A DNA stretch of 64,000 nt, from positions 5,024,001 to 5,088,000 of the forward strand of contig OZ253462.1 in NCBI GenBank assembly GCA_965261395.1. Direction: 5' to 3'. Made by a program: the position numbers and the translations under genes. Source of the DNA: Candidatus Latescibacterota bacterium. GTDB taxonomy: Bacteria; Latescibacterota; UBA2968; UBA8231. Below, piece by piece: positions 7,943 through 27,042 of this stretch. Positions within the stretch are counted from its first letter, which is position 1. Each line of letters begins with the position of its first letter. Below the pieces are notes generated by a model that was given only the letters and a program-made list of their open reading frames with translations, was not told the DNA's origin and ran no database searches.

Positions 7943-8706
7943 GAGGCTTCTCCGCCGGCCCGTTCCCAAGCGGCGCGCAGCACCTTTGCCAGCAGCTCGG
8001 GTGCGGCTTGGTGCAAGGCGTGTATGACCTCGGCTACCTCCGGGTCGTTGATCGGCGGCAGCATCACGGCTTGGCCCGATTCCGACAGCAGGCTGAAGGC
8101 CGAAACAGTGCCCCAATCCGGCAGCCCTCCGACTTGGGCGTGCATGTCGATGCTATCGACCTTGTCGAGGAAGGCATCCTCTAGCAGGCTCTGATCCACC
8201 TTGTACAAGAGCGCGGCGCGCTTGTTGGGATCGTCTAGCGCTGCGACCGCTTCGAGCCATTCCCACGACACCTTGGTGCGGTTGCCGTGGTAGTAAATCG
8301 GATCGAGCGTGTCTTCTACGGCGCGCGCAAACGACTCCGCCGACATGGCTTGCAAAAGCGCGGTGTTGAACCTCGCCAGTTTGTACCCGCTGGGGGCGAC
8401 CAACTCGGCGATGATCTCCGACGGCAGCTTATCGACGACAGCGGGCAAGTACCCCGGGCGGCCTTGGTCGTCCATGCCAGTCAGCGAGAGCACCTCCTCG
8501 GGGTTTGCGTCTATGGCCACCAGCGCGGCTTGTTCCTCAACGGCCTGCGCCCTAAGCAGCGCGTGGGCCTCGTCGGCGCGCCCTTCGCGCAGCATCTGGC
8601 GCAAAGAGACATTCTTGGCGATCAATTCTTCCAGATCGCCCGACCACTCCCCTAGCACCACCCGGCCACCCTGCATTTGCAGAGCATCGCTTTCGTGCTG
8701 GGACAT
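7939..8706 (-). CDS. Hypothetical protein
   Basis: 255-aa ORF with strong RBS AGGAGG and an upstream sigma70-like promoter. Confidence 0.75.
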   Translation of the reverse strand: MSQHESDALQMQGGRVVLGEWSGDLEELIAKNVSLRQMLREGRADEAHALLRAQAVEEQAALVAIDANPEEVLSLTGMDDQGRPGYLPAVVDKLPSEIIAELVAPSGYKLARFNTALLQAMSAESFARAVEDTLDPIYYHGNRTKVSWEWLEAVAALDDPNKRAALLYKVDQSLLEDAFLDKVDSIDMHAQVGGLPDWGTVSAFSLLSESGQAVMLPPINDPEVAEVIHALHQAAPELLAKVLRAAWERAGGEAS

Positions 8707-8749
8707 CGGTCCTCCTGTATGGAATGATTTGGGAATTGAGGGCGGTCTT

Positions 8750-8778
8750 AAGGTAGATTAAGCGGTGGGTTGTGTCAA
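8750..8778 (-). promoter_or_regulatory. Sigma70-type promoter TTGACA-N17-TACCTT for the 8706-7031 genes
   Basis: -35 at 8778-8773 and -10 at 8755-8750, within an AT-rich intergenic region. Confidence 0.55.
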
Positions 8779-8980
8779 TATAAAATTTTATATAACATGT
8801 TATTTATATTATACTTAAAACAATTTTCTGGACATTCTCTTTCTTTTTTCGTATATTATATAGCACGATGAGCGCGGGGCTTGTAGCCCGGCGCTTCTTT
8901 TGTATGGGCAAGCGACTTGACGAGAACCGCGCCGATTAGTAGCGCAGTACTAGGTTCTACCCTATATTGTCCCTTGTGCT

Positions 8981-9009
8981 CCCTCAGCCCCCTTGGGGCC
9001 GGGGTTTTT
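8981..9009 (+). terminator. Intrinsic terminator-like hairpin upstream of the UvrB/UvrC-motif gene
   Basis: CCCTCAGCCCC-CTT-GGGGCCGGGG followed by TTTTT. Confidence 0.5.
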
Positions 9010-9038
9010 CATTCTATTTTCTGTCAGAGAGCGCGCCC

Positions 9039-9806
9039 ATGAATTACGATATCGGCGACTTGCTCAACGGTTGGGAATTCAAGCCCGACGAATTCCTCGC
9101 TCGGCGCATTCGCACCAGTAAGGGCGAGGAAAAACTTCAGATCCGCATCGACATGGGGGTTCTTCAGCTCGAATTGGACGGCCGTCCCGACGGCCAACAA
9201 CCGCACGGCTGCCCCTCACTGCTCGACTACTATCAAGACCTCATCGAATCGCGCGACACCCCGGAAGGCTTCGTCCTAGATGAAGAAGAGTGCGAAGAAC
9301 TTTTCCAAGAGGCCTGGCAGTATTACCACCGCTATTTAAGCCTGTTCAATCTAGAGGACTACGAAGGGGTCGTCGCCGATACCGAGCACACCCTACAGAT
9401 TTTTGAATTGGTCGATCAGTGCGCGCCCAACGACGAGATCCGCTGGTACTTTGAACAGTACTATCCACACGCGATTATGATGCAGACCCGGGCACACGCC
9501 ATGGTAGCCCTGCAAAGCGACGACTATCCAGCGGCCATGCGTGCCGTGGAAGATGGCATTGCCCACATCGAGAGCTTTGTCGAAGAATGGGAATCCGAGC
9601 TAGAAGAGGATTTGCCCGAGATTTCCTTTTTGCGCGAATGGTACGAGGAACTAGAGCAGGAGCGCCCGCTGTCCCAGCGCGAACAATTAGAGCGCGACCT
9701 AGAGGTAGCCGTAGAGGCGGAAAACTTTGAGGAAGCCGCGCGGCTGCGCGACAAGATCCAGACCCTGTGGCCGGGGCCGCAGCACCTCCTCCGCCCCAAG
9801 CGCTGA
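9039..9806 (+). CDS. UvrB/UvrC motif-containing protein
   Basis: LQIRIDMGVLQLELDGRPDG N-terminus; C-terminal LEVAVEAENFEEAARLRDKI UVR motif. Start MNYDIG. Confidence 0.85.
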   Translation: MNYDIGDLLNGWEFKPDEFLARRIRTSKGEEKLQIRIDMGVLQLELDGRPDGQQPHGCPSLLDYYQDLIESRDTPEGFVLDEEECEELFQEAWQYYHRYLSLFNLEDYEGVVADTEHTLQIFELVDQCAPNDEIRWYFEQYYPHAIMMQTRAHAMVALQSDDYPAAMRAVEDGIAHIESFVEEWESELEEDLPEISFLREWYEELEQERPLSQREQLERDLEVAVEAENFEEAARLRDKIQTLWPGPQHLLRPKR

Positions 9807-9819
9807 GCTACACCCCAGC

Positions 9820-10623
9820 TTAACCCAGCCCCAACACGTCTCCCATCGAGTACATCCCCGGCGCGGCCTGCGCTGCAAAACGAGCGGCGCGCAACGCGCC
9901 CAAGGCAAAGGAATCGCGGCTCGTGGCGCGATGCTGCAGTTCGAGGCACTCGCCTGGGGCCGCGAAGAGCACCGAGTGCTCGCCCGCCAAGTCGCCGGCG
10001 CGGATCGCGTGCATGCCAATCTCCTGGCGAGAGCGCTCGCCGACGACGCCCGACCGCCCGTGTACAGCCACCTCGCGCAAGTTGCGGCCCAATCCGGCCG
10101 CGGCCCGCTCGGCCAGCGTCAGCGCCGAGCCGGAGGGCGCATCAACCTTGTGCCGGTGATGCGCCTCAATGATTTCCACATCGTAGTCGTCGCCCAGGAT
10201 CCGGGCCGCCTCTTCGACCAGCTTGAAGAGCACGTTCATGGCCGTGCTAAAATTCGACGCAAACACGCAGGTAATGTCCGCTACCGTCCGCTTGAATTCC
10301 GCTAGCTGATCCGGGTTAAAACCCGTGGTCCCCACCACCATGGGCACCCCGCGCACCGCGCAAAGGGCCGCGTCTTCGAGAGTCGCCTCCGGGGTCGTGA
10401 AATTAATGACGACTTGGTCTGGCTCGACGATGCCCGCCAGCGTGTCGCTGACCGTTAAGTCGAGGCGCCGGGTGCCGACGACTTCGCCGATGTCGCGCCC
10501 CACAGCCTCGTGATCCGGGCGCTCCTTGCCGCCGCATAGCTCCAAATCAGCAGCCGTCAAAACCAAGTGGGCCAGCCGCTGGCCCATGCGCCCGGCTATC
10601 CCGCAAATTACGATTTTGGTCAT
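9820..10623 (-). CDS. dapB: 4-hydroxy-tetrahydrodipicolinate reductase
   Basis: GIAGRMG, VGTTG, EAHHRHKVDAPSG and RDSFALGA motifs. Confidence 0.96.
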   Translation of the reverse strand: MTKIVICGIAGRMGQRLAHLVLTAADLELCGGKERPDHEAVGRDIGEVVGTRRLDLTVSDTLAGIVEPDQVVINFTTPEATLEDAALCAVRGVPMVVGTTGFNPDQLAEFKRTVADITCVFASNFSTAMNVLFKLVEEAARILGDDYDVEIIEAHHRHKVDAPSGSALTLAERAAAGLGRNLREVAVHGRSGVVGERSRQEIGMHAIRAGDLAGEHSVLFAAPGECLELQHRATSRDSFALGALRAARFAAQAAPGMYSMGDVLGLG

Positions 10624-10637
10624 CGCTCTAGCCTCGC

Positions 10638-11675
10638 TTAATACGATGGATACACCACGTGCTCGACCAGCGAGTCGTCGTGCAGACGCGCTTCCACATC
10701 CACCCCGAAAAACTCGGCGATCGGCGCCAAGGCCGTTGGGTCGTTGGCGTGTACTCGGCGCGCGGCGGTCAGCACCTTTTGCACGCTCGCGTGCGTCATC
10801 TTGCCCAGCGGCTGCCGCACCGGCCCGGCCGGCATGCCGAGGATATTCATCAGCGTCTTAACCGGCACGGGGTTGCGCGCCTTACACTCGACCGGGCCAT
10901 AAGCACTCTGCTCGGTGGTCGCGACGCCGACGATGCCAAAAAGCGGTGCCAGCTTCTCAGCCAAACTATCAGCCTCGTCCTCTTGGCCCGCGTTGAGCAA
11001 TTCGGTGAGCCGCTGGATGGGCCCCGGAATGACGTTGGACATCACCGAGATGACGCCAGCAGCCCGGATATCCTCGCTCTTCATCATCGCCACGGTCTTG
11101 TCGTCATCCCCCGAGAGGATGGTAAAATCGTCGCCGCAGAGCCGGCGGGTCTTGGCCATGTTGTCCAAGTCGCCGGTCGCCTCTTTGACTTGGGCCACGT
11201 TGGGGTACTGGTGGGCGAGGATGGCCAAATCCTCCACCTGCATCATGCAGCCGGTGCGGCCGGGGATGATGTAGGGGATGACCTGCACCTCGGGAAAAGC
11301 CCGCGCCACCGGCTCGACGTATTCGCGGCGGATCTCCAAGGAGCTGGGCCCATTGTAGTAGGGATCAACCAGCAGCACGGCGTCCGCGCCGATGTGGGCG
11401 GCGTGCTCGCTGCCCGCCAAGGTCTCCTTAGTAGAGTTGCTGCCCGTGCCGGCAATTGATAGGGTGCGGCCTTTGGCCAGCGCGACCGTGCGCTCGATAA
11501 CTTCGTTGTGCTCCTCCCACAGCATAGTCGGGCTTTCGCCGGTCGTGCCGACCGCGAGTACGGCTTGGATATTGTTGGCAATTTGGAATTCCACGAGCTG
11601 CTCCAAGCCGCCGTAGTCAATGCTGCCGTCTGCGTTCATGGGCGTTACTAGGGCCGTACTACAACCTTTGAACAT
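10638..11675 (-). CDS. dapA: 4-hydroxy-tetrahydrodipicolinate synthase
   Basis: ALVTPM, GTTGESPT, PYYN, YIIPGRTG, KEATGD and LSGDD motifs; adjacent to dapB. Start MFKGCS. Confidence 0.93.
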   Translation of the reverse strand: MFKGCSTALVTPMNADGSIDYGGLEQLVEFQIANNIQAVLAVGTTGESPTMLWEEHNEVIERTVALAKGRTLSIAGTGSNSTKETLAGSEHAAHIGADAVLLVDPYYNGPSSLEIRREYVEPVARAFPEVQVIPYIIPGRTGCMMQVEDLAILAHQYPNVAQVKEATGDLDNMAKTRRLCGDDFTILSGDDDKTVAMMKSEDIRAAGVISVMSNVIPGPIQRLTELLNAGQEDEADSLAEKLAPLFGIVGVATTEQSAYGPVECKARNPVPVKTLMNILGMPAGPVRQPLGKMTHASVQKVLTAARRVHANDPTALAPIAEFFGVDVEARLHDDSLVEHVVYPSY

Positions 11676-11797
11676 GGTCGCTTTACCTCGCCTTGGCTTG
11701 TCAAAATGGGGTTGATTGGCGATTGTCTTTTTGCCGCGATTGCCGAACATAATACGCCGCCCCAACTTTTGTCAAATGGCTTCATCGAGGAGGAACT

Positions 11798-12973
11798 ATG
11801 CCCGCGACAATCGACATGCGCTATGGATGCAACCCCCACCAAGCAGCGGCCCGCTGCTTTATGGCCGATGGCCGCGCCTTGCCCATCGAGCCGCTCAACG
11901 ACGCCCCTAGCTACATCAACCTCATGGATGCGCTCAACGCTTGGCAGCTCGTCCGCGATCTCAAACATGCTCTCGGCCTACCGGCTGCCGCTTCGTTCAA
12001 ACACGTCTCCCCAGCAGGTGCTGCCGTCGCCGCACCGCTCGACGAGACCCTGAGCGCGTCCTACTTCGTCGCCGACCGCGACCTCAGCCCGCTGGCCACG
12101 GCGTACGCCCGCGCGCGTGGTGCCGACCGCCTCGCTTCCTTTGGCGACTGGATCGCCCTCAGCGACGTGGTCGATTTCTCCACAGCCGATCTCATCCGCG
12201 TCGAGGTCTCCGACGGGATCATCGCCCCCGGCTACGAGCCAGAGGCTCTGGAGATTTTAAAAAAGAAAAAGGGCGGCCAGTATCGCATCCTGCAAATCGA
12301 CCCTGATTACTCGCCCGCCGCGACCGAACAACGCCAGATATTCGGTGTCGGACTCGCACAGCAACGCAACGATTTTATCCCCGACGACGCCTTTTTCCAC
12401 AACATCGTCACGGCCCGGAAGGACTTGTCGGCTAGTGCCCGCCGCGACCTAACGGTGGCAACCATCGCCCTCAAGTACACCCAATCCAACTCGGTGTGCC
12501 TAGCCCGCGACGGCCAAGTCATCGGCACCGGTGCTGGCCAGCAGTCGCGCGTCCACTGCGTGCGCTTGGCCTGCGCCAAGGCCGACAACTGGTATCTGCG
12601 CCTGCACCCCAAAGTCTTAGGCATGAAATTCGCCAAGGGCCTCAAGCGCCCGGAAAAAATCAACGCCATCGACATCTATCTGCAAGACGACGTCACCCCG
12701 GCCGAACTCCGAGCTTGGGAAGCCAACTTCCGCGAGGTACCAGAACGGCTCAGCGCGGAAGAGAAGCGGGAATGGCTGGACCATCTCAAGGGCGTGGCGC
12801 TGAGTTCAGACGCCTTTTTCCCCTTCCGCGACAACATCGACCGGGCACAGCGTTCAGGCGTGGAGTACTTAGTCCAAGCTGGCGGGTCAACGCGGGATGA
12901 TCTGGTAATCGAGGCGGCAGACGAATACGGAATGTTGATGATTAATTCGGGGGTGAGACTTTTTCACCATTGA
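11798..12973 (+). CDS. purH: AICAR transformylase (short PurH lacking the IMP cyclohydrolase domain)
   Basis: [32 protein letters not shown] and SDAFFPFRD motifs; ends RLFHH; 391 aa. Confidence 0.92.
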
Positions 12974-13018
12974 GGGAATATGTCTATCTTTGCAAAGGAG
13001 AGCACCAAGAGAAATGCT

Positions 13019-13081
13019 ATGACGCGAACAACCTATGAATTACCGATCCTCTGTACATCCGAAGAACTGCTTGGAGATTGA
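13019..13081 (+). pseudogene. C-terminal remnant of a PIN/VapC-type toxin
   Basis: Translates MTRTTYELPILCTSEELLGD*, resembling the 'GY.PP.ICTPEEL' terminus of a PIN family that precedes small 'DEIV.E.R' partners like the next gene. Confidence 0.5.
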
Positions 13082-13095
13082 TTATGATGAAACCA

Positions 13096-13266
13096 ATGAA
13101 CGAAAAAGAAACCACGGATGAAATTATCCAAGAGACAAGAAGGATCAAAGAAGCCTTGGCAAAGGCTATGGATTTCGACCTTGATCGCATTCTAGAAGAT
13201 GCAAGGCAGAGGCAAGAAAAAAGCGGCAGGATTGTTCTCTCTCCTCCAATTCGATCATCTATTTGA
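13096..13266 (+). CDS. Small protein typical of the partner downstream of PIN toxins (putative antitoxin)
   Basis: MNEKETTDEIIQETRRIKEALAKAMDFDLDRILEDARQRQEKSGR pattern; start may be 13084 or 13087. Confidence 0.55.
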   Translation: MNEKETTDEIIQETRRIKEALAKAMDFDLDRILEDARQRQEKSGRIVLSPPIRSSI

Positions 13267-13286
13267 GACTTCTCTAGGGGATTACC

Positions 13287-14381
13287 ATGCTAAAGCGAAT
13301 TCACATTGACAACTACAAGTGCCTCACCAACTTCGATCTGCGTTTCGGAGAACTGACGCTGCTGCTCGGAGCAAATGGATGCGGTAAGTCAGCCGTATTT
13401 GAGGTTGTGGGGAAACTGCGCGACTTCGTTCGCGGCGATGCACGGGTCGATGAATTGTTTCCCGCTGCTGACATCACGCACTGGAGTACAAAGCTTGAGC
13501 AACACTTTGAATTGGAAGTCGCCATACCCGGTGAAGTATGTCTTTACCGGCTTGTAATTGAACACAACTTGGAAAGACGATCCGCACGAGTAATACGCGA
13601 AGAACTCCTGTCCGATGACAAGCCGCTCTTTACTTTTGTAAACGGCGACGTACAGCTTTACCGCGATGATCACAGCGAGGGGCCAAAATACTCTTTCGAT
13701 TGGACGCAATCGGGTCTTGCACCAGTGGCCGAACGGCACGACAATACCCGGTTGTGTGCATTCCGAGATCAAGTCCGCCGTTTTGTGATACTTTTTTTAG
13801 AGACGAGACGCATGAGGAGCGGTTCGGATTCCGATACCGATAGGCTCAGCGACAGCGGTGAAAATTTTGCTTCGTGGTATCAGGGACGCTTACAAGAGAA
13901 TCCGAGCCGGATCTTTGAGGCGATGGATCACCTGCGCGATGTCCTGCCCGGTTTCGTGGAATTGAGACTCGTACAAAAAGGCACTGATTATAGGGAACTG
14001 CAAGCCGAGTTCTTCCCGAAGGATGGAAAAGCAGGTAGTATCTATCGGTTTGACCAACTCTCAGATGGTCAGCGTGCGTTAATAGTGATTCATTTGCTGC
14101 TCTTTGCCGATGACGCTGAGCGCACTTTGTTTTTGGATGAACCAGATAACTATATAACCCTCCCGGAATTGCAACCTTGGCTCGCCGAGTTGGAGGATGG
14201 CTGTGGCGACACTCTGCCGCAGACTATATTGATTTCGCATCACCCAGAAGCGATTGATTTTCTCAGCGACAAGGCGGTCTGGTTGGGGCGTGAACCGGAG
14301 AGTCATACACGCATCTTGGATGTCAAAAATGACACGATGTTAAAAACATCCGAACTCTACGCCCAGGAGCTCGCACCATGA
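13287..14381 (+). CDS. ABC-superfamily AAA_21/AAA_15-type ATPase (defence-associated)
   Basis: IHIDNYKCL, Walker A GANGCGKS, signature LSDGQR, Walker B FLDEPDNY and H-loop ISHHPE. Confidence 0.85.
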   Translation: MLKRIHIDNYKCLTNFDLRFGELTLLLGANGCGKSAVFEVVGKLRDFVRGDARVDELFPAADITHWSTKLEQHFELEVAIPGEVCLYRLVIEHNLERRSARVIREELLSDDKPLFTFVNGDVQLYRDDHSEGPKYSFDWTQSGLAPVAERHDNTRLCAFRDQVRRFVILFLETRRMRSGSDSDTDRLSDSGENFASWYQGRLQENPSRIFEAMDHLRDVLPGFVELRLVQKGTDYRELQAEFFPKDGKAGSIYRFDQLSDGQRALIVIHLLLFADDAERTLFLDEPDNYITLPELQPWLAELEDGCGDTLPQTILISHHPEAIDFLSDKAVWLGREPESHTRILDVKNDTMLKTSELYAQELAP

Positions 14382-14638
14382 CGCAAACAAGCGAAAGCCT
14401 GTCTATCACCTTCAAGGACAGCGTTATTCACAGCCGCAAGGACACTATGAGCGGTATGCCTGTTTTCAAAGGAACCCGCGTAGTTGTAAAGAACCTCTTT
14501 GATTATCTAGCATCTGGGTACAGCCTAGACGTTTTCCTAGATGACTTTCCGTCTGTAAGCCGCGAGCAAGCGGTAAGGGCACTTGAAATGGCAAAAGAAG
14601 CTCTGGAGAGTTACGCTTATGAGAGTGCTTCTCGATGA
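14378..14638 (+). CDS. DUF433 family antitoxin
   Basis: MSGMPVFKGTRVVVKNLFDYLASGYSLDVFLDDFPSV; ATGA overlap with the ATPase stop. Confidence 0.85.
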   Translation: MTQTSESLSITFKDSVIHSRKDTMSGMPVFKGTRVVVKNLFDYLASGYSLDVFLDDFPSVSREQAVRALEMAKEALESYAYESASR

Positions 14639-14942
14639 GTCGGTTCCATGGGCATTGAGACACTATTTGCCCGGACGTGAAGTGCGGACAGTCAAATATA
14701 TGGGATGGGACGGCAAGAGTAACGGTGAACTCTTAGATGTGGCGAGGAATGAGTTCGATGTTCTCATTACCGTTGACCAGAGCATCCAATACCAACAGAA
14801 TATCAGCGAAAAGGATGTTGCGGTCATAGTTCTCGCCGCAAAAACAAACGGCATCGATGATTTGAGAGGGCTGGTTCCTGAACTGCTAAACCACTTGGAC
14901 TTCCCGAAACGCGGGCAAGTCATCCGCATCGAAGCACCGTAA
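14619..14942 (+). CDS. DUF5615 family PIN-like toxin (VapC45-like)
   Basis: MRVLLDESVP...GKSNGELL...FDVLITVDQSIQYQQN; canonical DUF433 partner, overlapping it. Confidence 0.85.
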   Translation: MRVLLDESVPWALRHYLPGREVRTVKYMGWDGKSNGELLDVARNEFDVLITVDQSIQYQQNISEKDVAVIVLAAKTNGIDDLRGLVPELLNHLDFPKRGQVIRIEAP

Positions 14943-14963
14943 CATGGCTCCCCGCTTATTGAT

Positions 14964-17465
14964 ATGGCTGAAAATTTAATCCTTCCACTTGAGGCTTTTG
15001 TTCGTTCAGTTGGCGTGAATCGAGCTACTCAGCATGCATTCTTCCTTGGTGCAGGCGCATCTGTTAGTTCTGGTGTCCCCTCTACCGAAGAATGTATATG
15101 GGAGTGGAAAAGAAGCATTTTCGCAACCAATAACCCAGGCCTCGAAGAGCAATTCTCTGAACTGTCCCTTTCCAACGTCCAGAGCCGCATTCAGAAATGG
15201 CTGGATCGAAAAGGCATATACCCAGAGGCTGGTAGCGCCGAAGAGTATGGGTTTTACATCGAACAATGCTACCCGATCGAGGAGGATTGCCGAGCGTATT
15301 TTCGAGACGGGATACGCTTCGCTAAGCCGCATGTGGGCTATCGTTTACTGGCACGTTTGGCTCAAGGCGACTTAGTACGGTACGTCTGGACAACAAATTT
15401 CGACGGATTGACTGCGCGAGCTTCTGCTGGTTTCAGCCTTATACCAATCGAAATTGGCATTGATTGCCAATATCGTTTGAAGCGGGTTCCATCCAAGGGG
15501 GAACTATTTTGCATTTCTCTACACGGAGATTACCGCTATGACTCCCTGAAGAACACACCAGAGGAGCTACAAACGCAAGAAATAGAACTCCGAGGGGCTC
15601 TTATTGAAAAACTCCGCAATACTCCACTGATAGTGACTGGCTATAGCGGGCGCGACCAATCAGTCATGGAAGCACTTAAAGACGCCTACACCGAACAGGG
15701 AACAGGAACTCTTTACTGGTGCGGGTATGGCGATGATGAGATGCCGGAACACATCGCCGATTTGATTAGACATGCAAGGACAAATGGACGACAAGCTTTT
15801 TATGTTCATTCACAAGGCTTCGACGATTTGATGGAACGCCTTGCCTTGCATTGTCTTGACGGCGAGGCACTCCAAGCGGCGAAAAACGATCTCTCCCGAA
15901 TAGAGACACAGCAAATCACAAGCAATGCATCTGAGATTGAGTTCCCCAAGCAGTGGCTAACGCGAGATGCCGACGTCCACGCCTCCCTCGTCCCCTATCG
16001 CCTGCTGGAAGAAACTCCTGACCTTTCCACCGGCGACCCCAATGCCGGCAACATGCTCATCCAAGGCGACAATCTGGAAGCACTGAAGGCACTGCTGCCA
16101 TTCTACGCCGGCCAAGTGAAGTGCATCTACATCGACCCACCGTATAACACGCGCTCGGCCTTTAAGCACTACGACGACAATCTCGAACACAGCAAGTGGC
16201 TGGCGATGATGTGGCCGCGCCTTGAACTTTTGCGTGAGATGTTGGCCGAGGATGGCTCTCTTTGGGTGTCCATTGACGATAACGAGGCGCACTACCTCAA
16301 GGTCATAATGGACGAAGTGTTCGAGCAGAAAAACTTCATAACCAATGTGGTTTGGCGAAAGAATTACGCGCCAAAGCCAAGCGCAAGGCATTTCTCCGAA
16401 GACCACGACCATATTTTGGTTTACGCTCGTAATGAGGATACCTGGATTCCCAACCCCATGCCGCCCACCGATAAACAAAACAGAGCGTATAGAAATCAGG
16501 ACAACGACCCGCGAGGGCCTTGGCGGCCCAATAATCTTACTGCTCGCAACTACTATAGCAGAGGGACTTATAGTATTCGCTGCCCAGGCGGACGTTTAAT
16601 TGAGGGACCACCTGCTGGTTCATATTGGCGAATTTCGGAAGAAAAATTTTGGGAGATGGATCGCGATGGGCGTATATGGTGGGGTAAGGACGGCAATAAC
16701 GTCCCTGCACCCAAGATTTATCTGAACGAGGTCAAGCAGGGCATTGTTCCGCAGACATTGTGGAATTACGAAGATGTTGGTCACACGCAGGACGCAAAAA
16801 AGGAAACTGTGAAGCTATTTGGTAGTGAAGTTTTCGGAACACCAAAACCCGAACGTCTTATCCAACGCATCCTCCACATCGCCACCAACACCGGCGACCT
16901 CGTCCTCGACTCCTTCCTCGGCTCCGGCACCACCGCCGCCGTAGCGCACAAGATGGGCCGCCGCTACATCGGCATTGAAATGGGAGAGCACGCCGTTAGC
17001 CATTGCGTCCCGCGCCTGAACAAAGTGATTGACGGCGAACAAGGCGGCATCTCCAAAAGTGTCGGCTGGCAGGGCGGCGGCGGGTTTCGCTTCTATCGCC
17101 TCGGCCCACCCATGTTCGATGAGGAAGGGCATATTCGCTCCGACATTCGCTTTTCCGTGCTCGCCGCTCACGTCTATTTCAGCGAAACCGGGCGTCCGTG
17201 GCGCGGTAACAGCGTTTCCCCCTTCCTTGGCCTGTACGATGGCCGCGCTTATGCACTGCTGTACAACGGCATCCTCGAAGACAAAGGCAACGTCTTAACC
17301 CGTGAGACCCTCGCTGTGATTCGAGAGGAGATTACGCGCAAAGATGCTGATTTCGCCGGGCCGCTCACAGTCTACGGCGAGCAGTCGCGCTTGACGCTAG
17401 CGACGCTCGACCGGGAGCGCATCGTCTTCAAACAGACGCCCTATGACGTGAAAGTAAGGACTTGA
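14964..17465 (+). CDS. Fusion protein: N-terminal SIR2-like (NADase) domain + Type III R-M Mod adenine methyltransferase
   Basis: aa 1-~310 carry SIR2 motifs FFLGAGASVSSG, WTTNFD, LHGDYRY, GYSGRD and LYWCG. aa 331-833 carry NMLIQGDNLEALK, IDPPYNT (motif IV), TPKPERL and DSFLGSGTT (motif I). One uninterrupted frame. Confidence 0.9.
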   Translation: MAENLILPLEAFVRSVGVNRATQHAFFLGAGASVSSGVPSTEECIWEWKRSIFATNNPGLEEQFSELSLSNVQSRIQKWLDRKGIYPEAGSAEEYGFYIEQCYPIEEDCRAYFRDGIRFAKPHVGYRLLARLAQGDLVRYVWTTNFDGLTARASAGFSLIPIEIGIDCQYRLKRVPSKGELFCISLHGDYRYDSLKNTPEELQTQEIELRGALIEKLRNTPLIVTGYSGRDQSVMEALKDAYTEQGTGTLYWCGYGDDEMPEHIADLIRHARTNGRQAFYVHSQGFDDLMERLALHCLDGEALQAAKNDLSRIETQQITSNASEIEFPKQWLTRDADVHASLVPYRLLEETPDLSTGDPNAGNMLIQGDNLEALKALLPFYAGQVKCIYIDPPYNTRSAFKHYDDNLEHSKWLAMMWPRLELLREMLAEDGSLWVSIDDNEAHYLKVIMDEVFEQKNFITNVVWRKNYAPKPSARHFSEDHDHILVYARNEDTWIPNPMPPTDKQNRAYRNQDNDPRGPWRPNNLTARNYYSRGTYSIRCPGGRLIEGPPAGSYWRISEEKFWEMDRDGRIWWGKDGNNVPAPKIYLNEVKQGIVPQTLWNYEDVGHTQDAKKETVKLFGSEVFGTPKPERLIQRILHIATNTGDLVLDSFLGSGTTAAVAHKMGRRYIGIEMGEHAVSHCVPRLNKVIDGEQGGISKSVGWQGGGGFRFYRLGPPMFDEEGHIRSDIRFSVLAAHVYFSETGRPWRGNSVSPFLGLYDGRAYALLYNGILEDKGNVLTRETLAVIREEITRKDADFAGPLTVYGEQSRLTLATLDRERIVFKQTPYDVKVRT
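17412..17465 (+). repeat. Direct repeat copy 1: 3' end of mod
   Basis: CATCGTCTTCAAACAGACGCCCTA (17420-17443) is identical at 19268-19291; encodes RERIVFKQTPYDVKVRT*. Confidence 0.9.
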
Positions 17466-17496
17466 GACGCGAATCTGACCAGAAAGGAGATTCAAT

Positions 17497-19248
17497 ATGT
17501 ACCAAACCGGTGACACTATCCGAAAAATTCTTTATGAAATCGAGCGCCATGATATTGTGTTGCCCGCCATCCAACGCGAGTTCGTATGGAAGCCGGAACA
17601 AATCTGCCAGCTATTTGACAGCATCATGCAGGGATACCCCTTTGGTACCTTTCTCTACTGGAAGGTCCAGCCGGAAAACAGTACTAAATTCCAATTCTAC
17701 GATTTCGTTCTCAATTATCATGAGCGGGACGACCCCCATTGCCCGCAACTGTCCCCGATGCCGAATCGGCAGTTGACGGCAGTACTCGATGGACAGCAGC
17801 GCCTGACCGCACTGAATATCGGCCTGCGTGGGACCATGGCTTGGAAGTTGCCGTACAAGTTTCGGACTAATCCCGATGCCTTCCCTGAGCGTCGTCTTTA
17901 CCTAGACCTCCTTTGGAACCCTGACGAAGAGGACGAAACGGGGAGACAGTACCACTTCGATTTTCTGACAGAAAAAGAAAGTCAAGAGAGCGATGAGAGA
18001 GAGGGGGAATGCTATTTTCCTGTTGCGGATATACTGCCGATGGCCGGGGGGCTTCCTATGGTAGAGTGGCTAAACCAGCGGCTGCCGCAGGAACAAGTGA
18101 ACCAAGCTTTCAGCACGCTCGATAAACTTCACCGGGTTGTACATGCTGAAAAGATAGTGGCCTTTTACGAAGAACGCAGCCAAGAGCTCGAGAAAGTCCT
18201 CCAGATCTTCATTCGTACGAACAGCGGTGGGACCATTCTCTCGTATTCGGACTTGCTGCTTTCGGTCGCGGTCGCGCTATGGAGAAAGCGTGACGCCCGA
18301 GAAGAGATTCATGCGCTGGTGGATGAGCTTAACAGAATTGGCAGCGGCTTCTTTTTCTCCCAAGACTTGGTTCTCAAGGCTGGGCTGATGCTGAGCGACA
18401 TCGGCAGCGTTGGCTTTAAGGTGGATAACTTCAACCGAGAGAATATGGCCAAGTTAGAAGAGAAGTGGAACGATATAAAACAAGCCCTGATCTTGACAGT
18501 CCAGCTAGTTTCCCGTTTCGGCTTCAATGGACAGACCTTGAGTGCAGACAGTTCCATTCTGCCGATTGCGTACTATCTCTACATGCGAGACCCAGGAGAA
18601 TCCTATCTAACGAACAGTAGGTTCAAACAGGATCGGCAGGAGATCCGTAAATGGCTAATTCGGAGCCTCCTGAAGGCTGGCATCTGGGGTAGCGGCTTGG
18701 ATACACTGCTGACTGCGCTCAGGCAGATCATTAAAGAGAATAGCAGCAATGATTTTCCTGTCACCCGGATTCGTGAAGAAATGACACGCCGGGGCAAATC
18801 GCTTGTCTTTGAGAAGGAAGAACTGGAGGAGTTGGCTGATATGCAGTACGGTAACAAGCTCACATTCGCTCTGCTGTCACAAATATTCCCCTTCATTGAT
18901 CTGAGCAACCATTTCCACATAGACCATATCTTTCCCCAATCTCGATTTACCGATCGGCGACTTAGAGATGCAGGTGTCCCGGATGACAAGGTAGAAGATT
19001 TCAAACAGCTCAAAAATGGACTTGCCAATCTTCAACTGCTTCAAGGTCCAGAGAACAACGAAAAACGCGCCAAGATGCCGGCTGATTGGCTATCCCAAAT
19101 GTACCGTGATGATCCCAAGGGCAAGCAGGCAGACAAAGACCGGCACTTGCTAGGAGAGGTTCCGGAGGAAATAACAGAGTTCGATGTTTTCTACGCTGCT
19201 AGGAGAGCACGTTTGAAGTCGAAAATCGACCAGTTGCTGGGGAGTTGA
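17497..19248 (+). CDS. DUF262 domain protein with C-terminal HNH/DUF1524-like motif (GmrSD-like nuclease)
   Basis: LPAIQREFVW, LDGQQRLT and FIRTNSGG motifs; C-terminal HIDHIFP...LANLQLL...N; RBS AAAGGAG. Confidence 0.88.
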   Translation: MYQTGDTIRKILYEIERHDIVLPAIQREFVWKPEQICQLFDSIMQGYPFGTFLYWKVQPENSTKFQFYDFVLNYHERDDPHCPQLSPMPNRQLTAVLDGQQRLTALNIGLRGTMAWKLPYKFRTNPDAFPERRLYLDLLWNPDEEDETGRQYHFDFLTEKESQESDEREGECYFPVADILPMAGGLPMVEWLNQRLPQEQVNQAFSTLDKLHRVVHAEKIVAFYEERSQELEKVLQIFIRTNSGGTILSYSDLLLSVAVALWRKRDAREEIHALVDELNRIGSGFFFSQDLVLKAGLMLSDIGSVGFKVDNFNRENMAKLEEKWNDIKQALILTVQLVSRFGFNGQTLSADSSILPIAYYLYMRDPGESYLTNSRFKQDRQEIRKWLIRSLLKAGIWGSGLDTLLTALRQIIKENSSNDFPVTRIREEMTRRGKSLVFEKEELEELADMQYGNKLTFALLSQIFPFIDLSNHFHIDHIFPQSRFTDRRLRDAGVPDDKVEDFKQLKNGLANLQLLQGPENNEKRAKMPADWLSQMYRDDPKGKQADKDRHLLGEVPEEITEFDVFYAARRARLKSKIDQLLGS

Positions 19249-19259
19249 TTCCCCACTGG

Positions 19260-19313
19260 CGGGAGGACATCGTCTTCAAACAGACGCCCTACGATATCAA
19301 AGCGCGCACCTGA
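19260..19313 (+). repeat. Direct repeat copy 2: orphan mod 3' end directly before res
   Basis: Encodes REDIVFKQTPYDIKART*; the res ATG follows after a 3-nt gap. Confidence 0.9.
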
Positions 19314-19316
19314 TCC

Positions 19317-22001
19317 ATGCAGCTAAAACAATATCAAGCCGACACCCTCTCCGTCCTGCGCCGCTTCTTCGAGGAAGCGCGTATCGCCGGCCCCAAAAAC
19401 GCCTACGAAGCCATAACCCAAGAGCCAGAGCAGGCTGCGCGGCTTAGAGGCTATGCCGAATCTTACGCACCGCTAAAAGAATTGCCAGACGTTCCCTACG
19501 TCTGCCTGCGCCTACCCACCGGCGGCGGCAAAACAATCCTCGCCGCCCACGCCGTCTCCATCGCCCGCAATGCTTGGATCGAAAAGGACTATCCATTAGT
19601 GCTGTGGCTGGTGCCGACCAAAACCATCCGTCGACAGACAGTCGAGGCGCTGAAAAACACCCGCCACGCTTATCGGCAAGTGCTGGACGACGCTTTCGAC
19701 GGCCGGGTGCGCGTATTCGACATCGCCGACTTCACCCATATCCGGCCGCACGACTTGCGCGACCACTGCTGCATTGTGGTCGGCACCATTCAAACGCTGC
19801 GGGTGTCGAACACCGAAGGGCGCAAAGTGTACGCCCACAACGAGGAGATGGAACCGCACTTCTCCGGCGTCCGGGATACTGCGCCTGGCTTGGAAAAGCT
19901 GGACAATGGCACCGTCAAATTCTCCTTCGCCAACCTGCTGCATCGCCATCAGCCCCTGATGATAGTCGATGAGGCACACAACGCCGTCACCGGCCTGACG
20001 CGGGAAATGCAGGCGCGAGTCAACCCCTGCGCCATCGTCGAATTCACGGCAACCCCGCAGCGCAAGTCGAACATCCTACACAGCGTCACCGCCCAAGAAC
20101 TCAAGCGAGAAGAAATGATCAAACTGCCCATCATGCTCGCCGAGCACGACACTTGGCAAAACGCGGTGAACGGGGCCATTGCCGCCTGTGCTTCACTAGC
20201 AGAGACTGCGAAGGACGATGCCGACTACATCCGTCCCATCATCTTGTTCCAAGCGCAGCCGAAAAACCAAGAGGTAACAGTCGCGGCTCTGAAAAATCAC
20301 CTGATGGACATTGAGCAAATCCCGGAAAGCAAAATCGCCATTGCCACCGGCGACCAACGCGAACTCGACGGCATCGACTTGTTCGACCGCACCTGTCCCA
20401 TCGAATACGTCATTACGATCGAGGCGCTCAAAGAAGGCTGGGACTGCTCCTTCGCCTACATTTTCTGCTCCGTATCGCGCATCCAAAGTGCAACAGACGT
20501 GGAGCAACTGCTCGGCCGCGTACTGCGGATGCCCTATGCCACGCGCCGCCAAGCACCCGGCCTCAACAAAGCCTACGCCTTCCTATCCGAGCCATCTTTT
20601 GGCGAAGCCGCGCGCGCCTTGGCCGACAAATTGGTGGACATGGGCTTTGAGGAAGACGAAGCCCTCGACCACATCGAGCCGGTGCAGCGCACGCTCGACT
20701 TCCAGAGAGACTTGTTCAGTCCGCAGGAAAAGCCGGAGCCGATATTCAGCTATACGACCCCGGCAACCCCAGAAATCCTGTCCGAACTCAGAGAGGCAGT
20801 GCACGACGGGCTGCTAGTACGCGAAACCGCTGAAGGGCAGGTCGAGATCGCGCTTACTGGCTGGATCAATCAGGACCGCAAGCAGGTGATTTTGGAGGCA
20901 TTGCCCGAGCAAGAGCGAAAAGGTTTTGCCACTGCCGTTACCCAATACCGCGCCGCAGTCAAGGAGCAAATATCCCCTGCCGAACAGGGGCAGCCATTCA
21001 AAGTCCCACGCCTGATGTCGGAAATCCAGGGCACGCTGGAATTCGCCGATACGGACGTGTTCATGGAATACCACGACTGGTCGCTACTCGATTATTCGCC
21101 AAAAATGGACGAACAGGAGTTCACTATCCACGAGACAGCGCGCAGTTTTGCAATAGACATTGACGGCAATCGCATCACCTACCAGTTCGCCAGCGAAGAG
21201 GAGCAATTGGCGCTGGACATTGCCGTCGAAGGCTGGACCGCTGAAGCGCTCGTCCTGTGGCTCGATCGGCAGGTACGCCAGATGGACATTCACCAGAGTG
21301 AATTACTCAAATGGCTGCGCCAACTGGTCAATCACCTGCTCAACACACGCGGCATGACCATCTCCGCGCTAATGCGTTGCAAATTCCTGCTCGCCAAGAA
21401 AACCGAGTACAAGATCGCGGCCATTCGCCAAAAGCAACGAAGCAGCGTCTATCAGCAGTACCTCTTGGTGCCCAAGGCCAACACAACGGTCTCGTTCGAT
21501 ACGGCCTTCACATTTGTGGACAACATGTATTGGGATCAACGGCGCTATCGCGGGCGCTGGAAACCAAGCAAGCACTTTTTAGGCCCAGATCGCGTTCCCG
21601 CCTTTGACGGTGCGGACGACGGCGAGGAAATGCGATGCGCTCAGGTCATCGACAGTCTAGCGGCAGTGAAGTACTGGATTCGCAATGTAGCGCGCCATCC
21701 CAACTCGTTTTGGCTGCCCACCGCAACAGACAAATTCTACCCGGACTTTGTCGCTTTGCTAAACGATGATCATCTCCTCGTCGTCGAATACAAGGGAGCG
21801 CATATCGCCGAAGGATCGGATACCAACGAGAAGCGGACCATTGGTGCTCTTTGGGAGAAGTCGAGCGACGGCAAGGGCCTGTTCATCATCGCGGAGCAAA
21901 TGGTCGATGGGAAGGACGTGCGGCAGCAGTTGCAAGAAAAAACCTGTGGCCACCCCATCGCGTCTCTTCCACCCAAACGCATCCCCAAGGAACCGTCTTA
22001 G
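19317..22001 (+). CDS. res: Type III restriction enzyme Res subunit (SF2 helicase + PD-(D/E)XK nuclease)
   Basis: LPTGGGKT, IVDEAHN, EFTATP, LKEGWDC and QLLGRVLRMP helicase motifs; C-terminal FYPDFV...VVEYKG. Confidence 0.92.
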   Translation: MQLKQYQADTLSVLRRFFEEARIAGPKNAYEAITQEPEQAARLRGYAESYAPLKELPDVPYVCLRLPTGGGKTILAAHAVSIARNAWIEKDYPLVLWLVPTKTIRRQTVEALKNTRHAYRQVLDDAFDGRVRVFDIADFTHIRPHDLRDHCCIVVGTIQTLRVSNTEGRKVYAHNEEMEPHFSGVRDTAPGLEKLDNGTVKFSFANLLHRHQPLMIVDEAHNAVTGLTREMQARVNPCAIVEFTATPQRKSNILHSVTAQELKREEMIKLPIMLAEHDTWQNAVNGAIAACASLAETAKDDADYIRPIILFQAQPKNQEVTVAALKNHLMDIEQIPESKIAIATGDQRELDGIDLFDRTCPIEYVITIEALKEGWDCSFAYIFCSVSRIQSATDVEQLLGRVLRMPYATRRQAPGLNKAYAFLSEPSFGEAARALADKLVDMGFEEDEALDHIEPVQRTLDFQRDLFSPQEKPEPIFSYTTPATPEILSELREAVHDGLLVRETAEGQVEIALTGWINQDRKQVILEALPEQERKGFATAVTQYRAAVKEQISPAEQGQPFKVPRLMSEIQGTLEFADTDVFMEYHDWSLLDYSPKMDEQEFTIHETARSFAIDIDGNRITYQFASEEEQLALDIAVEGWTAEALVLWLDRQVRQMDIHQSELLKWLRQLVNHLLNTRGMTISALMRCKFLLAKKTEYKIAAIRQKQRSSVYQQYLLVPKANTTVSFDTAFTFVDNMYWDQRRYRGRWKPSKHFLGPDRVPAFDGADDGEEMRCAQVIDSLAAVKYWIRNVARHPNSFWLPTATDKFYPDFVALLNDDHLLVVEYKGAHIAEGSDTNEKRTIGALWEKSSDGKGLFIIAEQMVDGKDVRQQLQEKTCGHPIASLPPKRIPKEPS

Positions 22002-22311
22002 AGCGACTTCTGCGCCTCCGGTTGTGGCGCGCAGCGCGTCGCTTGTGCGTACGGTCGCCCTGCCACTTCCGCCAACAATTCCTCGCAATGCACATACAGA
22101 CCCAACTGCCGTCGCGTGGCTTCCATCGGCCCGACGATCCCAAGGCGCACCGCAGCGCTCATCTGGTCTCTGAGCACTTGAAACATGTAAAGCTGTAATC
22201 GGCCTCGACCTTGGGGCTAAGAATCTTCAACGGTGCGACGGCCAAGCAAGATGTCAACCGCGACCTTCCCCCGACGCGGCTCACTTCGACGATGGACCAA
22301 GCCTCGTCCAT
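21998..22311 (-). pseudogene. Urease accessory remnant: ureD 5' end joined to ureF 3' part
   Basis: MDEAWSIVEVSRVGGRSRLTSCLAVAPLKILSPK (UreD-like N-terminus), then in another frame LRDQMSAAVRLGIVGPMEA...ATRCAP (UreF 'SAAVRL' motif), truncated against res. Confidence 0.6.
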
Positions 22312-22316
22312 GCCGA

Positions 22317-23090
22317 TCAGATCGGCGCTAACCAACCCCCATCGACCGGCAACGCCGTCCCCGTAATCCACTCCGCGTCATCCGAGGCAAAAAACGCCAC
22401 CGCCCGCCCAATGTCCCTCGGCAAGCCCAAGCGCGGCAAGGGCGTATCCCGCCGACATTGCTCGATGATCTCCGGGGTTAAATAGTCTTGGATCGGCGTC
22501 TCGATATAGCCCGGGCATACCGCGTTGACCGTGACGTTGTCCCCAGCCAGTTCCAACGCCGAATCCCGCGTCAGATTCACCACCCCGGCCTTAGTCGGCG
22601 CATAGGCCGGACCGCCACCGCCGCCGAAGGCGTGGACCGAGGCAATGTTGACGATGCGCCCAGCCGCGGATTTTCGCAGATAGGGCGCGGCAAATTTGGT
22701 CGAGAGGAAGATCGAGCGCAGATTGACCCCCACGACCCGGTCCCACGCCTCGACGGATAGTTCTTGGCTGTCTCCCAGTATGATGATCCCGGCGTTGTTG
22801 ACCAAAATATCCACCCCGCCAAAGCGCTCGACACTGCGGGCGATTAGCTTTTCCACTGCCTTTTCGTCGGCCACATCAGTCTCGACGAAGAGCGCCTCGC
22901 CGCCCTCCTCGGCAATAATCTCGGCCGTGGGTGGCTGCGGCGCGGTCTCGTGAAACCTGCCGATCTTGGGCGCTTCCTGTATATCGGCCACTGCAACCTT
23001 GGCCCCTTCGCGGGCCAGTTCGAGACAAATACCCCGCCCAATCCCCGAACTCCCTCCGGTAACAACGGCGATGCGATCCTGCAAACGCAT
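22317..23090 (-). CDS. Short-chain dehydrogenase/reductase
   Basis: TGGSSGIG, NNAG, YAPTK, VNAVCPG and ITGTALPVDGG motifs. Confidence 0.93.
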   Translation of the reverse strand: MRLQDRIAVVTGGSSGIGRGICLELAREGAKVAVADIQEAPKIGRFHETAPQPPTAEIIAEEGGEALFVETDVADEKAVEKLIARSVERFGGVDILVNNAGIIILGDSQELSVEAWDRVVGVNLRSIFLSTKFAAPYLRKSAAGRIVNIASVHAFGGGGGPAYAPTKAGVVNLTRDSALELAGDNVTVNAVCPGYIETPIQDYLTPEIIEQCRRDTPLPRLGLPRDIGRAVAFFASDDAEWITGTALPVDGGWLAPI

Positions 23091-23220
23091 GGATTTTCCT
23101 CCTGTTTGTCGCAGAATCTATGGCGGCTGGACAAGGGAGACAAGGCGGATCGGCCTGTCGATCCGGCCATTTGATGTGGCAGCAAATTGACTCTAAAATA
23201 GACCAAGAGGAGAATTTATC

Positions 23221-23841
23221 ATGCCTGTGAGACTATTCATTGTGGGATGCAAAAACCCGCTCTACGCCATCGCCTGCTGTCTATGCCTGTCCTTTGGGGC
23301 CGCCGCAGCCGACGACTCCATCCGCGCCCAGATCGAAGTCCTCCGCGCCGCCAAAGATAGCTTGCTCAAAAGTGAGGATTCGCCGCTGCTGCCAGCGCAA
23401 CGCGCCCGCTTTGAACAGCTTGCGTACTATCCCATCGACTTCCGCTATCGTCTGCGGGGCGAGCTGCATATCTACGGTCGCCAGCGCATCGTCGAAATTC
23501 CCAATACCGACGACACCACCACCGAACTCGAGCGATTGGGGCGCTTTGTTTCGGCCTTTGGCGAAAAAGTCTTTTGGCTGGAGGTGTACCGCAGTCCGCA
23601 AACCGGCGAAACAGAAGTCTTCTTCAAGGATCCGACCAACGGCCATACCACGTATGGGGGCGGGCGCTACGCGCGCCTGATTCGAGAGGACGATGGTATG
23701 TATGTCATCGATTTCAATAACGCTTATAATCCATACTGTGCGTACAATCCCGCCTATATTTGCCCGCTGCCTCCGCGACAAAACTACCTCGATTTCGCCG
23801 TGGAGGCTGGTGAGCTAATGAGCGCTGCCGACTCACGCTGA
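23221..23841 (+). CDS. DUF1684 domain exported protein
   Basis: FKDPTNGHTTYGGGRY and DFNNAYNPYCAYNP-YICPLPP motifs; signal peptide. Confidence 0.9.
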   Translation: MPVRLFIVGCKNPLYAIACCLCLSFGAAAADDSIRAQIEVLRAAKDSLLKSEDSPLLPAQRARFEQLAYYPIDFRYRLRGELHIYGRQRIVEIPNTDDTTTELERLGRFVSAFGEKVFWLEVYRSPQTGETEVFFKDPTNGHTTYGGGRYARLIREDDGMYVIDFNNAYNPYCAYNPAYICPLPPRQNYLDFAVEAGELMSAADSR

Positions 23842-23898
23842 TGCGCGGTGCGCGTTTTTTGCGTATAATTTTCAGCGCACCCTCTCCCCCTGAACAGC

Positions 23899-25743: not shown

Positions 25744-25753
25744 GGACGGCAGG

Positions 25754-26952: not shown

Positions 26953-27042
26953 CTTCCCCTCCCTATTGTCTATCGTCGGCAGAGCGCGTACTTTTTGCAA
27001 TATAATTCGCGGCAACCCTTCACAAAATCAACCGAGGAGCTC

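Follow-up and report, generated by a model that had tools for sequence, protein, structure and literature searches.

The Mod subunits of Type III restriction-modification (R-M) systems dimerise, as in EcoP15I. In EcoprrI, a suicide effector accompanies an R-M enzyme: PrrC is a separate ABC-ATPase/anticodon-nuclease protein, encoded in the hsd operon and kept silent by the Type Ic enzyme. Effectors of abortive-infection systems (CBASS, Thoeris, short prokaryotic Argonaute (pAgo) systems) show a pattern in which membrane and NADase heads replace each other on one body. According to PMC11452484, the Sir2 of SPARSA has no activity in the monomeric complex and is switched on when the target triggers tetramerisation, which aligns H186. 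Passages of PMC10781750 describe GsSir2 as having a Sir2 domain at residues 1-309, a linker at 309-331 and APAZ from 331, with an N142/H186 dyad whose alanine mutants lose NADase activity. Here we describe a 64,000-nt window from the genome of a Candidatus Latescibacterota bacterium (contig OZ253462.1, positions 5,024,001 to 5,088,000), in which one open reading frame (ORF) of 833 aa joins a SIR2 domain to a Type III Mod (SIR2::Mod; Table 1). A preliminary description had proposed an undescribed guarded R-M system, in which the SIR2 domain depletes NAD+ as a second line of defence. The ORF was a genuine, lineage-specific, in-frame gene fusion. We consider it probable that it arose by deletion between coupled genes for a SIR2-pentapeptide-repeat (SIR2-PPR) protein and for Mod, and that it is a tolerated accident in one clone and not an evolved guard.

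Domain architecture and comparison with described systems

Pfam placed SIR2_2 at residues 141-263 (E 9e-11) and N6_N4_Mtase (PF01555) at residues 385-679 (E 5e-51) of the fusion. PADLOC matched positions 2-316 of 1030 of its SIR2-APAZ-pAgo model to residues 4-320 (448 bits), and positions 6-541 of 542 of its MTase_III profile to residues 331-831 (629 bits). In an HMMER search of solved structures, the SIR2 half matched the Sir2-APAZ chain of SPARSA (8jkz, 8jl0, 8in8; E 1e-33), and the Mod half matched 6k0w (E 2e-46) and the EcoP15I Mod (4zcf, E 4e-33). The intact motifs of both enzymes that the preliminary description had listed were all located, namely GAGAS (29-33), TTNFD (143-147, with N145), LHGDY (186-190, with H187) and GYSGRD (226-231) in the SIR2 half and DPPY (391-394) and FLGSGTT (651-657) in the Mod half. 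N145, H187 and GYSGRD were invariant in the SIR2 alignment (A4).

AlphaFold2 (AF2) modelled residues 1-335 from a clean alignment of 14 rows with a predicted local distance difference test score (pLDDT) of 83.7 and a predicted template modelling score (pTM) of 0.83. The linker at 316-335 is predicted to be flexible, since its pLDDT was below 50. In a model of the entire 833-aa fusion (A3), pLDDT was mostly 80-95 in the Mod half and 25-60 in the SIR2 half. We ascribe the low SIR2 values to an alignment that was both thin and mixed, as a clean one gave 83.7 for this half on its own; the fold search was run with the SIR2-half model and not with the 833-aa model. Its top Foldseek matches were SPARSA Sir2-APAZ chains (8jl0_A, 8jkz_A, 8y80_E; TMq 0.74). 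ThsA, SIR2-HerA and DSR2, which share this fold and its Asn-His site, were far more distant (E 1e-8 to 1e-6, TMq 0.43-0.56). Domain mapping with HMMER and Foldseek, proposed earlier as a check, found a SPARSA-type SIR2 and a full Type III Mod.

Profile, sequence and fold searches all placed the SIR2 half in the SPARSA clade, for which an NADase role in abortive infection is proven. The N142/H186 dyad of GsSir2, as given in those passages of PMC10781750, aligns to N145/H187 of the fusion, and in both proteins the foreign part starts at 331. In the fusion, however, the linker is followed by a Type III Mod and not by APAZ. No APAZ match to residues 331-1055 of P0127, a SIR2-APAZ-pAgo protein, was found in window positions 8001-28000, and a search of the own genome with P0127 matched residues 4-321 only, with no APAZ and no MID-PIWI pAgo. 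The fusion is not a SPARSA member, because it has neither APAZ nor pAgo. Pfam and PADLOC likewise found no SLOG, ThsB (TIR), HerA or DSR2 C-terminal sensor on the ORF and its neighbours.

The Mod half resembled Type III enzymes of the EcoP15I Mod2Res type (4zcf, 6k0w) in its beta-class motif order, with DPPY before FxGxG and a target-recognition region between them, in its full-length match to the Mod profile, and in a co-operonic Res with helicase and PD-(D/E)xK motifs. By motif order, profile match and partner it is classed as a Type III Mod, which would hemimethylate DNA at specific sites. It differed in that the Mod has no start of its own, its first five codons being replaced by 330 SIR2 residues, and in that a GmrSD-family gene separates mod from res. 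The concept of a suicide effector inside or beside an R-M operon recalls PrrC; here, in contrast, the SIR2 domain is covalently joined to a Type III Mod, and a guard function is only hypothetical. The parts of the fusion are known; the variant that they form is new and belongs to a single lineage.

The join in independent sequencing runs

The source genome is a single 6.55-Mb contig. In each of four runs, which come from four studies (X1, X5, X6, X7; Table 1), Logan contigs crossed nt 15954 without any difference. X6 and X7 are the clearer independent runs, as X1 may be the source sample and the contigs of X5 are sized like those of X1. An assembly chimera is excluded at nt 15954, because contigs of four runs bridge the join without a difference. 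Mapping reads over the junction had been suggested in the preliminary description, which took a lack of spanning reads as evidence against the fusion; no such lack occurred. That assembly or sequencing had artificially fused two genes is consequently a negligible prospect, even though the GC step described below sits exactly at the join. All read-derived copies were identical; one clone persists in nature, an observation that is silent on selection. RNA runs X15-X20 contained 0.05-0.09 of the sampled words.

Distribution of the fusion

The protein collections comprised 5.8 billion clusters and 1.84 billion representatives, searched within length limits of 458-1458 aa; the protein-cluster searches listed the best 120 matches, which for the whole-protein and junction searches were the best 120 of 7999 scored. 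With the whole protein as query, these were the fusion itself (P0001) and 119 stand-alone Mods of 485-551 aa, which were 72-84% identical to the fusion and covered 55-61% of the query. The P0001 cluster had one member, recorded on three contigs. Among the best 120 matches to residues 1-330, no protein except P0001 carried PF01555. A junction-spanning query (residues 235-430) was covered to 100% by P0001 alone (448 bits), and the other 119 proteins listed covered at most 52% on the Mod side or at most 49% on the SIR2 side. A second fusion, even one of moderate identity on both sides, would have ranked above these 119.

Both halves were matched by none of the best 150 among the 1.84 billion representatives, a search that non-representative cluster members would escape. 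The Atlas search returned Mod clusters only, at 0.80, and listed no cluster with both Pfam families. Independent full-length proteins with SIR2_2 and N6_N4_Mtase, which the preliminary description had looked to for support, were absent from the matches listed. We conclude that one lineage alone has the fusion, to the extent that these collections and length limits allow. No description of a SIR2-Mod fusion was found in the full texts searched, and the claim that it is undescribed held to that extent.

Parentage of the two halves

Among the best 120 matches to the SIR2 half, the closest relatives were SIR2-PPR proteins of 655-686 aa and not pAgo fusions (P0124, 86% identity; P0125, 83%; P0126, 82%; P0128, 76%; P0136, 72%). 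About 100 SIR2-APAZ-pAgo proteins of 1046-1101 aa came next (P0127, 78%). The SIR2-PPR proteins (with P0278 and P0413, seven in all) were 72-86% identical to the SIR2 half and linker up to W331. Like them, the fusion has a SIR2 domain followed by an ETQQITS..PKQW linker; unlike them, it is without the helical domain (..LKNAIEHLG..), the pentapeptide repeats and the ..WIAEYE..EVPEDDS tail. These parts were absent from the ORF and, with P0124 as query, from the whole genome. Queries of the own genome with P0124 and P0127 gave neither a PPR half nor an APAZ-pAgo partner in trans.

The linker ..LSRIETQQITSNASEIEFPKQW is common to the fusion, P0278 and P0124 up to the tryptophan, after which P0278 and P0124 enter the helical and PPR part and the fusion enters Mod (Table 1). 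Mod homology begins at codon 6 of stand-alone Mods, in agreement with the earlier placement of the join at W331, near the usual Mod start. In the DNA, the 30 bases past TGG match the mod of relatives and the bases before TGG do not. M1, P2 and W6 were invariant in 23 diverse Mods down to 44% identity. The sequence of the fusion switches parents at one tryptophan codon common to both. The DNA is GC-richer past the join, as had been noted: GC rises from 0.487 to 0.551, and GC at third codon positions (GC3) from 0.461 to 0.647.

Two types of SIR2-to-body junction were seen among SIR2-PPR proteins, one in P0128 and P0136 and the other in P0124, P0125, P0126, P0278 and P0413. One type retains the ..TEQGQQQERLKNAIEHLG segment of the related PPR proteins with two hydrophobic segments (2TM-PPR), and the other has ..ETQQITS..PKQWQDHLQNAIEHLG, which suggests two fusion events or later remodelling. 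SIR2 and PPR occurred in one frame in none of 132 class and 168 phylum representative genomes. Metagenome contigs scanned with alignment A1 gave 12 PPR loci, none with SIR2, and genome contigs scanned with the SIR2 half gave eight loci, all SIR2-APAZ-pAgo (33-64% identity).

PPR genes coupled to mod in related loci

Related loci were taken from 17 of the 23 genomes with a strong Mod match, plus G049, giving 18; mod was present in 17 of them and was followed by a full-length res in 16. A PPR-protein gene lay directly upstream of mod in 11 of the 17 mod loci, with a product of 319-501 aa. Two hydrophobic segments were present in ten of these proteins, the eleventh (L042) being an N-terminally truncated 319-aa ORF. 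All 11 had the helical domain (..RLKNAIEHLGHEK..LRQTVLDILCAHIRQTT..), pentapeptide repeats and the tail ..WIAEYE.AMSEVPEDDS. The PPR stop overlapped the mod ATG by 1 nt (TAATG or TGATG) in nine cases, and the two genes abutted or lay 3 nt apart in the other two. GGAGG occurred within the ..PEDDS codons, about 9 nt before the mod ATG, in nine of the 11, and this GGAGG in the last PPR codons is the predicted ribosome-binding site of mod. The same arrangement was seen in L051, L054, L063 and L070 and, by coordinates, in G050.

Some metagenomic PPR proteins carry a SIR2 head in place of the 2TM head. In the SIR2-PPR proteins, the PPR half has homology to the 2TM-PPR proteins, which are 46-50% identical to P0124, and it too closes with the ..WIAEYE.AMSEVPEDDS tail. 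P0124 and the Mod P0012 were each recorded on exactly one contig, both of 10600 bp. We infer that the SIR2-PPR gene occupies the same slot before mod, because the C-terminal tail is common and the two contigs are of equal length. The 2TM-PPR genes have the same genomic position as the SIR2 half, directly before mod. The recurring architecture is an unfused (2TM or SIR2)-PPR gene coupled to mod-res.

The remaining six of the 17 mod loci had other genes in the slot before mod (Table 1). A single-chain SIR2-APAZ-pAgo gene was found directly upstream of a same-family mod-res in two unrelated genomes (L038 and the metagenome-assembled genome (MAG) locus L002); no mod-res neighbour was present at the SIR2-APAZ-pAgo loci L003-L008 and the more distant L009. 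Relatives give indirect support for a functional tie between an NADase effector and this Type III R-M family, because a (2TM or SIR2)-PPR or SIR2-APAZ-pAgo gene directly precedes mod in them.

None of three tested 2TM-PPR proteins matched a PADLOC model, no published name was found for SIR2-PPR or 2TM-PPR proteins, and the (2TM or SIR2)-PPR + mod + res unit was found described neither in PADLOC nor in the full texts searched. No paper among these texts was found to tie a Type III Mod to PPR proteins or to SIR2, or to bring SIR2, short pAgo and pentapeptide together. Passages of 10.1101/2022.07.19.500537 name pentapeptide repeats as sensor-type repeats of bacterial NACHT proteins, and passages of PMC10853773 name them as fused to Orc/Cdc6-like defence ATPases. 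The unit might be an undescribed mod-coupled accessory gene with a swappable killing head (2TM or SPARSA-type SIR2) on a DNA-shaped PPR body that sits on or watches Mod/Res; we regard this as unlikely. Complex prediction for Mod (A2) and residues 325-655 of P0124, its PPR half (A1), gave a score of 0.00, which is evidence neither way. If true, the mod-coupled PPR gene would be an R-M-linked abortive-infection layer, with SIR2::Mod as its natural 'short-circuit': the NADase would be attached to Mod itself, and a collision of two Mod2-Res complexes on unmodified DNA would bring four SIR2 domains together. The fusion alone is a one-clone curiosity, and the recurring (2TM or SIR2)-PPR + mod + res operon is the more interesting lead.

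Decayed mod 5' stubs followed PPR genes without mod at ten loci (L012, L013, L015, L019, L052, L053, L055, L066, L068, L072), and a further stub was present at L047; the stubs ranged from 4 to 60 codons (Table 1). The mod 5' end is a recurrent breakpoint or inactivation site in this gene family, because orphan PPR genes precede decayed mod stubs. At L050 (G027), positions 7495-10481, the N-terminal part of mod was replaced and res was in three fragments. L052 (6007-12998) carried a tandem pair of PPR genes together with a mod stub of 47 codons and another mod that was full. Rearrangement of the R-M locus is frequent, and in the window the GmrSD insertion and the exchange of the ATPase partner gene are two more rearrangements of the island.

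Origin and condition of the fusion

The join is best read as a deletion scar between adjacent, translationally coupled genes and not as a designed domain boundary. The ancestor would have been an operon of SIR2-linker-helical domain-PPR, mod and res, with the PPR stop overlapping the mod ATG and the mod Shine-Dalgarno sequence within the final codons of the PPR gene. If the DNA between the TGG that ends the linker and the TGG of mod codon 6 were deleted, exactly the window sequence would result, in frame. With P0124 as the guide, the loss would amount to about 975 coding nucleotides, comprising the helical/PPR part and the GGAGG, ATG and codons 1-5 of mod. In the fusion, Mod has neither a start of its own nor M1-H5: there is no upstream GGAGG/ATG, and the reading frame comes in from SIR2. 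Past the join, ATG 16053 (M364) is the first canonical start in frame, with no purine-rich stretch before it. Mod can, as predicted from this, be made only as SIR2::Mod or as an M364 form without 38 conserved N-terminal residues.

SIR2::Mod would dimerise through Mod and provide Res with the methylase and specificity subunit of a Type III enzyme, while a SIR2 NADase domain would hang from each Mod by a flexible linker. The SIR2 domain, without a sensor of its own, would stay off and be a silent passenger by default, because SIR2 of the SPARSA clade needs sensor-driven tetramerisation and the presumed PPR sensor is lost.

Several points weigh against an accidental deletion product in one clone. 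The closest unfused relatives are only 82-86% identical, and the fusion may be old and maintained. The identical sequence in runs from four studies shows that the clone persists. The catalytic motifs of both enzymes are preserved and no clear decay is seen in the SIR2 half, as would be so for a functional effector. Function of Mod with a 330-aa N-terminal extension and without the invariant M1-H5 is only predicted, and the adjacency of SIR2-PPR genes to mod is deduced from the tail and the equal 10600-bp contigs.

The opposite view is that the fusion is a hard-wired, functional guard, an active second-line effector in which Mod2 holds two SIR2 domains. The trigger would be two Mod2-Res complexes on unmodified DNA, or an anti-restriction protein or DNA mimic binding Mod/Res; four SIR2 domains would gather, the NADase would switch on and the infected cell would be aborted. 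The invariant N145, H187 and GYSGRD are present, SIR2 of this clade switches on by tetramerisation, the linker is predicted to be flexible, SIR2-APAZ-pAgo (L038, L002) or effector-PPR genes repeatedly precede a mod of the same family, and the clone occurred in four studies. However, P0001 was alone among the best 120 of 7999 in the search of 5.8 billion clusters, the deletion scar took out the only candidate sensor, NADase activity and expression are presumed, and the single copy precludes a selection test. We judge such a guard to be rather improbable. Of the original proposal, the real in-frame fusion, the intact motifs and the SPARSA-clade SIR2 stood; the lack of independent full-length homologs among the matches listed, the deletion scar and the lost sensor part speak against the guard. 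The guarded R-M proposal thus has partial support as a view of the locus family, but none for this fusion as an evolved system. A functional link between PPR proteins, SIR2 and Type III R-M would mean that a classical R-M enzyme is backed by a suicide effector, and the natural fusion would be a ready construct for asking whether Mod-mediated gathering of SIR2 suffices for NADase switch-on.

In the SIR2 half, three deviations (D10E, A41T, R109C) were found at 115 columns conserved to at least 95%, where members of the family have a median of 2 and at most 7, and one deviation at 61 columns conserved to at least 99%. The preliminary description had held that a fusion unique to this genome with a decaying SIR2 half would speak against a guard; it was unique, and the SIR2 half was not clearly decayed. 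The Mod half had seven substitutions at 256 columns conserved to at least 95% (E401K, L426M, I433L, G454E, R455Q, R501P, P643T). Four of them (L426M, G454E, R455Q, R501P) fell on 184 columns conserved to at least 99%, the highest number of 120 proteins, 92 of which had none. G454 and R501 deviated likewise in a more diverse set of 27 sequences. As P0001 is without a close relative in these conservation sets, more private changes are expected in it. Tajima-type relative-rate tests gave no consistent acceleration, the outcome varying with sister and outgroup, probably due to a mosaic Mod. The Mod substitutions weakly suggest that the constraint on Mod has been relaxed or altered.

These substitutions also favour a second alternative, in which Mod was disabled by the deletion. 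Because Res depends on Mod for finding DNA, the entire R-M system would have failed as well, leaving an early-stage pseudogene array that is open by chance. The loss of the invariant M1-H5, the relatives with decayed mod stubs and fragmented res (L050) and the loss of the ATPase partner gene from the same island point the same way. Against this, no stop interrupts the 2.5-kb frame, DPPY and FLGSGTT are preserved, Res and GmrSD are intact, the relative rates show no consistent acceleration, and private changes are expected for want of a close relative. A dead end of this kind is doubtful, with a modest chance of being correct, and a tolerated deletion product remains the reading that we prefer.

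Neighbouring genes

The fusion lies in a low-GC island (about 13000-22050), flanked to the left by dapB, dapA and a purH-like gene and to the right by an SDR gene; no tRNA was found within the 64,000-nt window. In a scan of 12800-22400, promoter and terminator sites were no more numerous than in shuffles. The preliminary description had placed the fusion upstream of an intact res. The res was intact and co-operonic, although not adjoining, as a GmrSD-family gene lay between them.

Table 1. Genes and join of the window, contigs across the join, and PPR genes, slots and mod remnants at related loci. Positions are those of the window unless a locus is named.
Feature	Position	Strand	Description
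AAA ATPase (HEC-01A-like)	13287..14381	+	Pfam AAA_21, AAA_15; PADLOC HEC-01A; left part of the defence island
DUF433 gene	14378-14638	+	Pfam; between ATPase and fusion
DUF5615 gene	14583-14942	+	Pfam; directly upstream of fusion
SIR2::Mod fusion ORF	14964-17465	+	833 aa, ATG start
SIR2 half, residues 1-330	14964..15953	+	SPARSA-clade SIR2 ~1-315, linker 316-330
Junction codon TGG (W331)	15954..15956	+	Common to SIR2-PPR linker (..PKQW|QDH..) and mod codon 6 (MPTLH|W|LTRD)
Type III Mod half, residues 331-833	15954..17465	+	Residues 6-509/513 of stand-alone Mods
GmrSD-family (DUF262/DUF1524-type) gene	17497-19248	+	583 aa; Pfam GmrSD_N, GmrSD_C; PADLOC HEC-05, 743 bits
Res	19317-22001	+	Pfam ResIII; PADLOC REase_III 2-873, 600 bits
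Join, window fusion			..LSRIETQQITSNASEIEFPKQ-W-LTRDADVH..
Join, P0278			..LSRIETQQITSNASEIESPKQ-W-RDDLTLKNSIEHLG..
Join, P0124			..SEIESPKQ-W-QDHLQNAIEHLG..
Join, stand-alone Mods			MPTLH-W-LTRDADIH..
Bridging Logan contig, X1	14700-16073		
Bridging Logan contig, X5	14700-16073		
Bridging Logan contig, X6	15104-16073		
Bridging Logan contig, X7	15091-16073		
PPR gene upstream of mod	L033:6611-8011		Example; 7 loci besides these four
PPR gene upstream of mod	L034:6830-8092		Example
PPR gene upstream of mod	L036:6696-8180		Example
PPR gene upstream of mod	L041:10094-11599	-	Example
Slot before mod, L038			SIR2-APAZ-pAgo (G001, same genus)
Slot before mod, L044			TIR-like protein
Slot before mod, L045, L049			CBASS-type E2 proteins
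Slot before mod, L046			PDC-M71B TPR protein
Slot before mod, L050			Unrelated enzyme
Mod stub, L012, L068			MPTLH-stop, TGG -> TAG at codon 6
Mod stub, L019, L066			MPILHS-stop
Mod stub, L015, L053, L055, L052			20-60 codons
Mod stub, L047	L047:14078-14433		
Mod stub, G049			..EDDS-stop, MPIL-stop, small ORF, then SIR2-pAgo gene

The GmrSD gene between mod and res was present in none of the 18 related loci, where the mod-res gap was mostly 3-50 nt. Res had a Walker A motif at 66, DEAH at 218 and PD..EYK near the C-terminus, and was 74-96% identical to the Res of the 16 related loci with a full-length res. Copies of the ATPase (76-96% identity) lay upstream of the R-M genes in L038, L041, L043, L044, L047 and L051. 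In L038 and L041, the ATPase gene was followed by an overlapping gene for a 170-aa partner, where the window has the DUF433 and DUF5615 genes, and DNA homology to these two loci ended exactly at the ATPase stop (14381).

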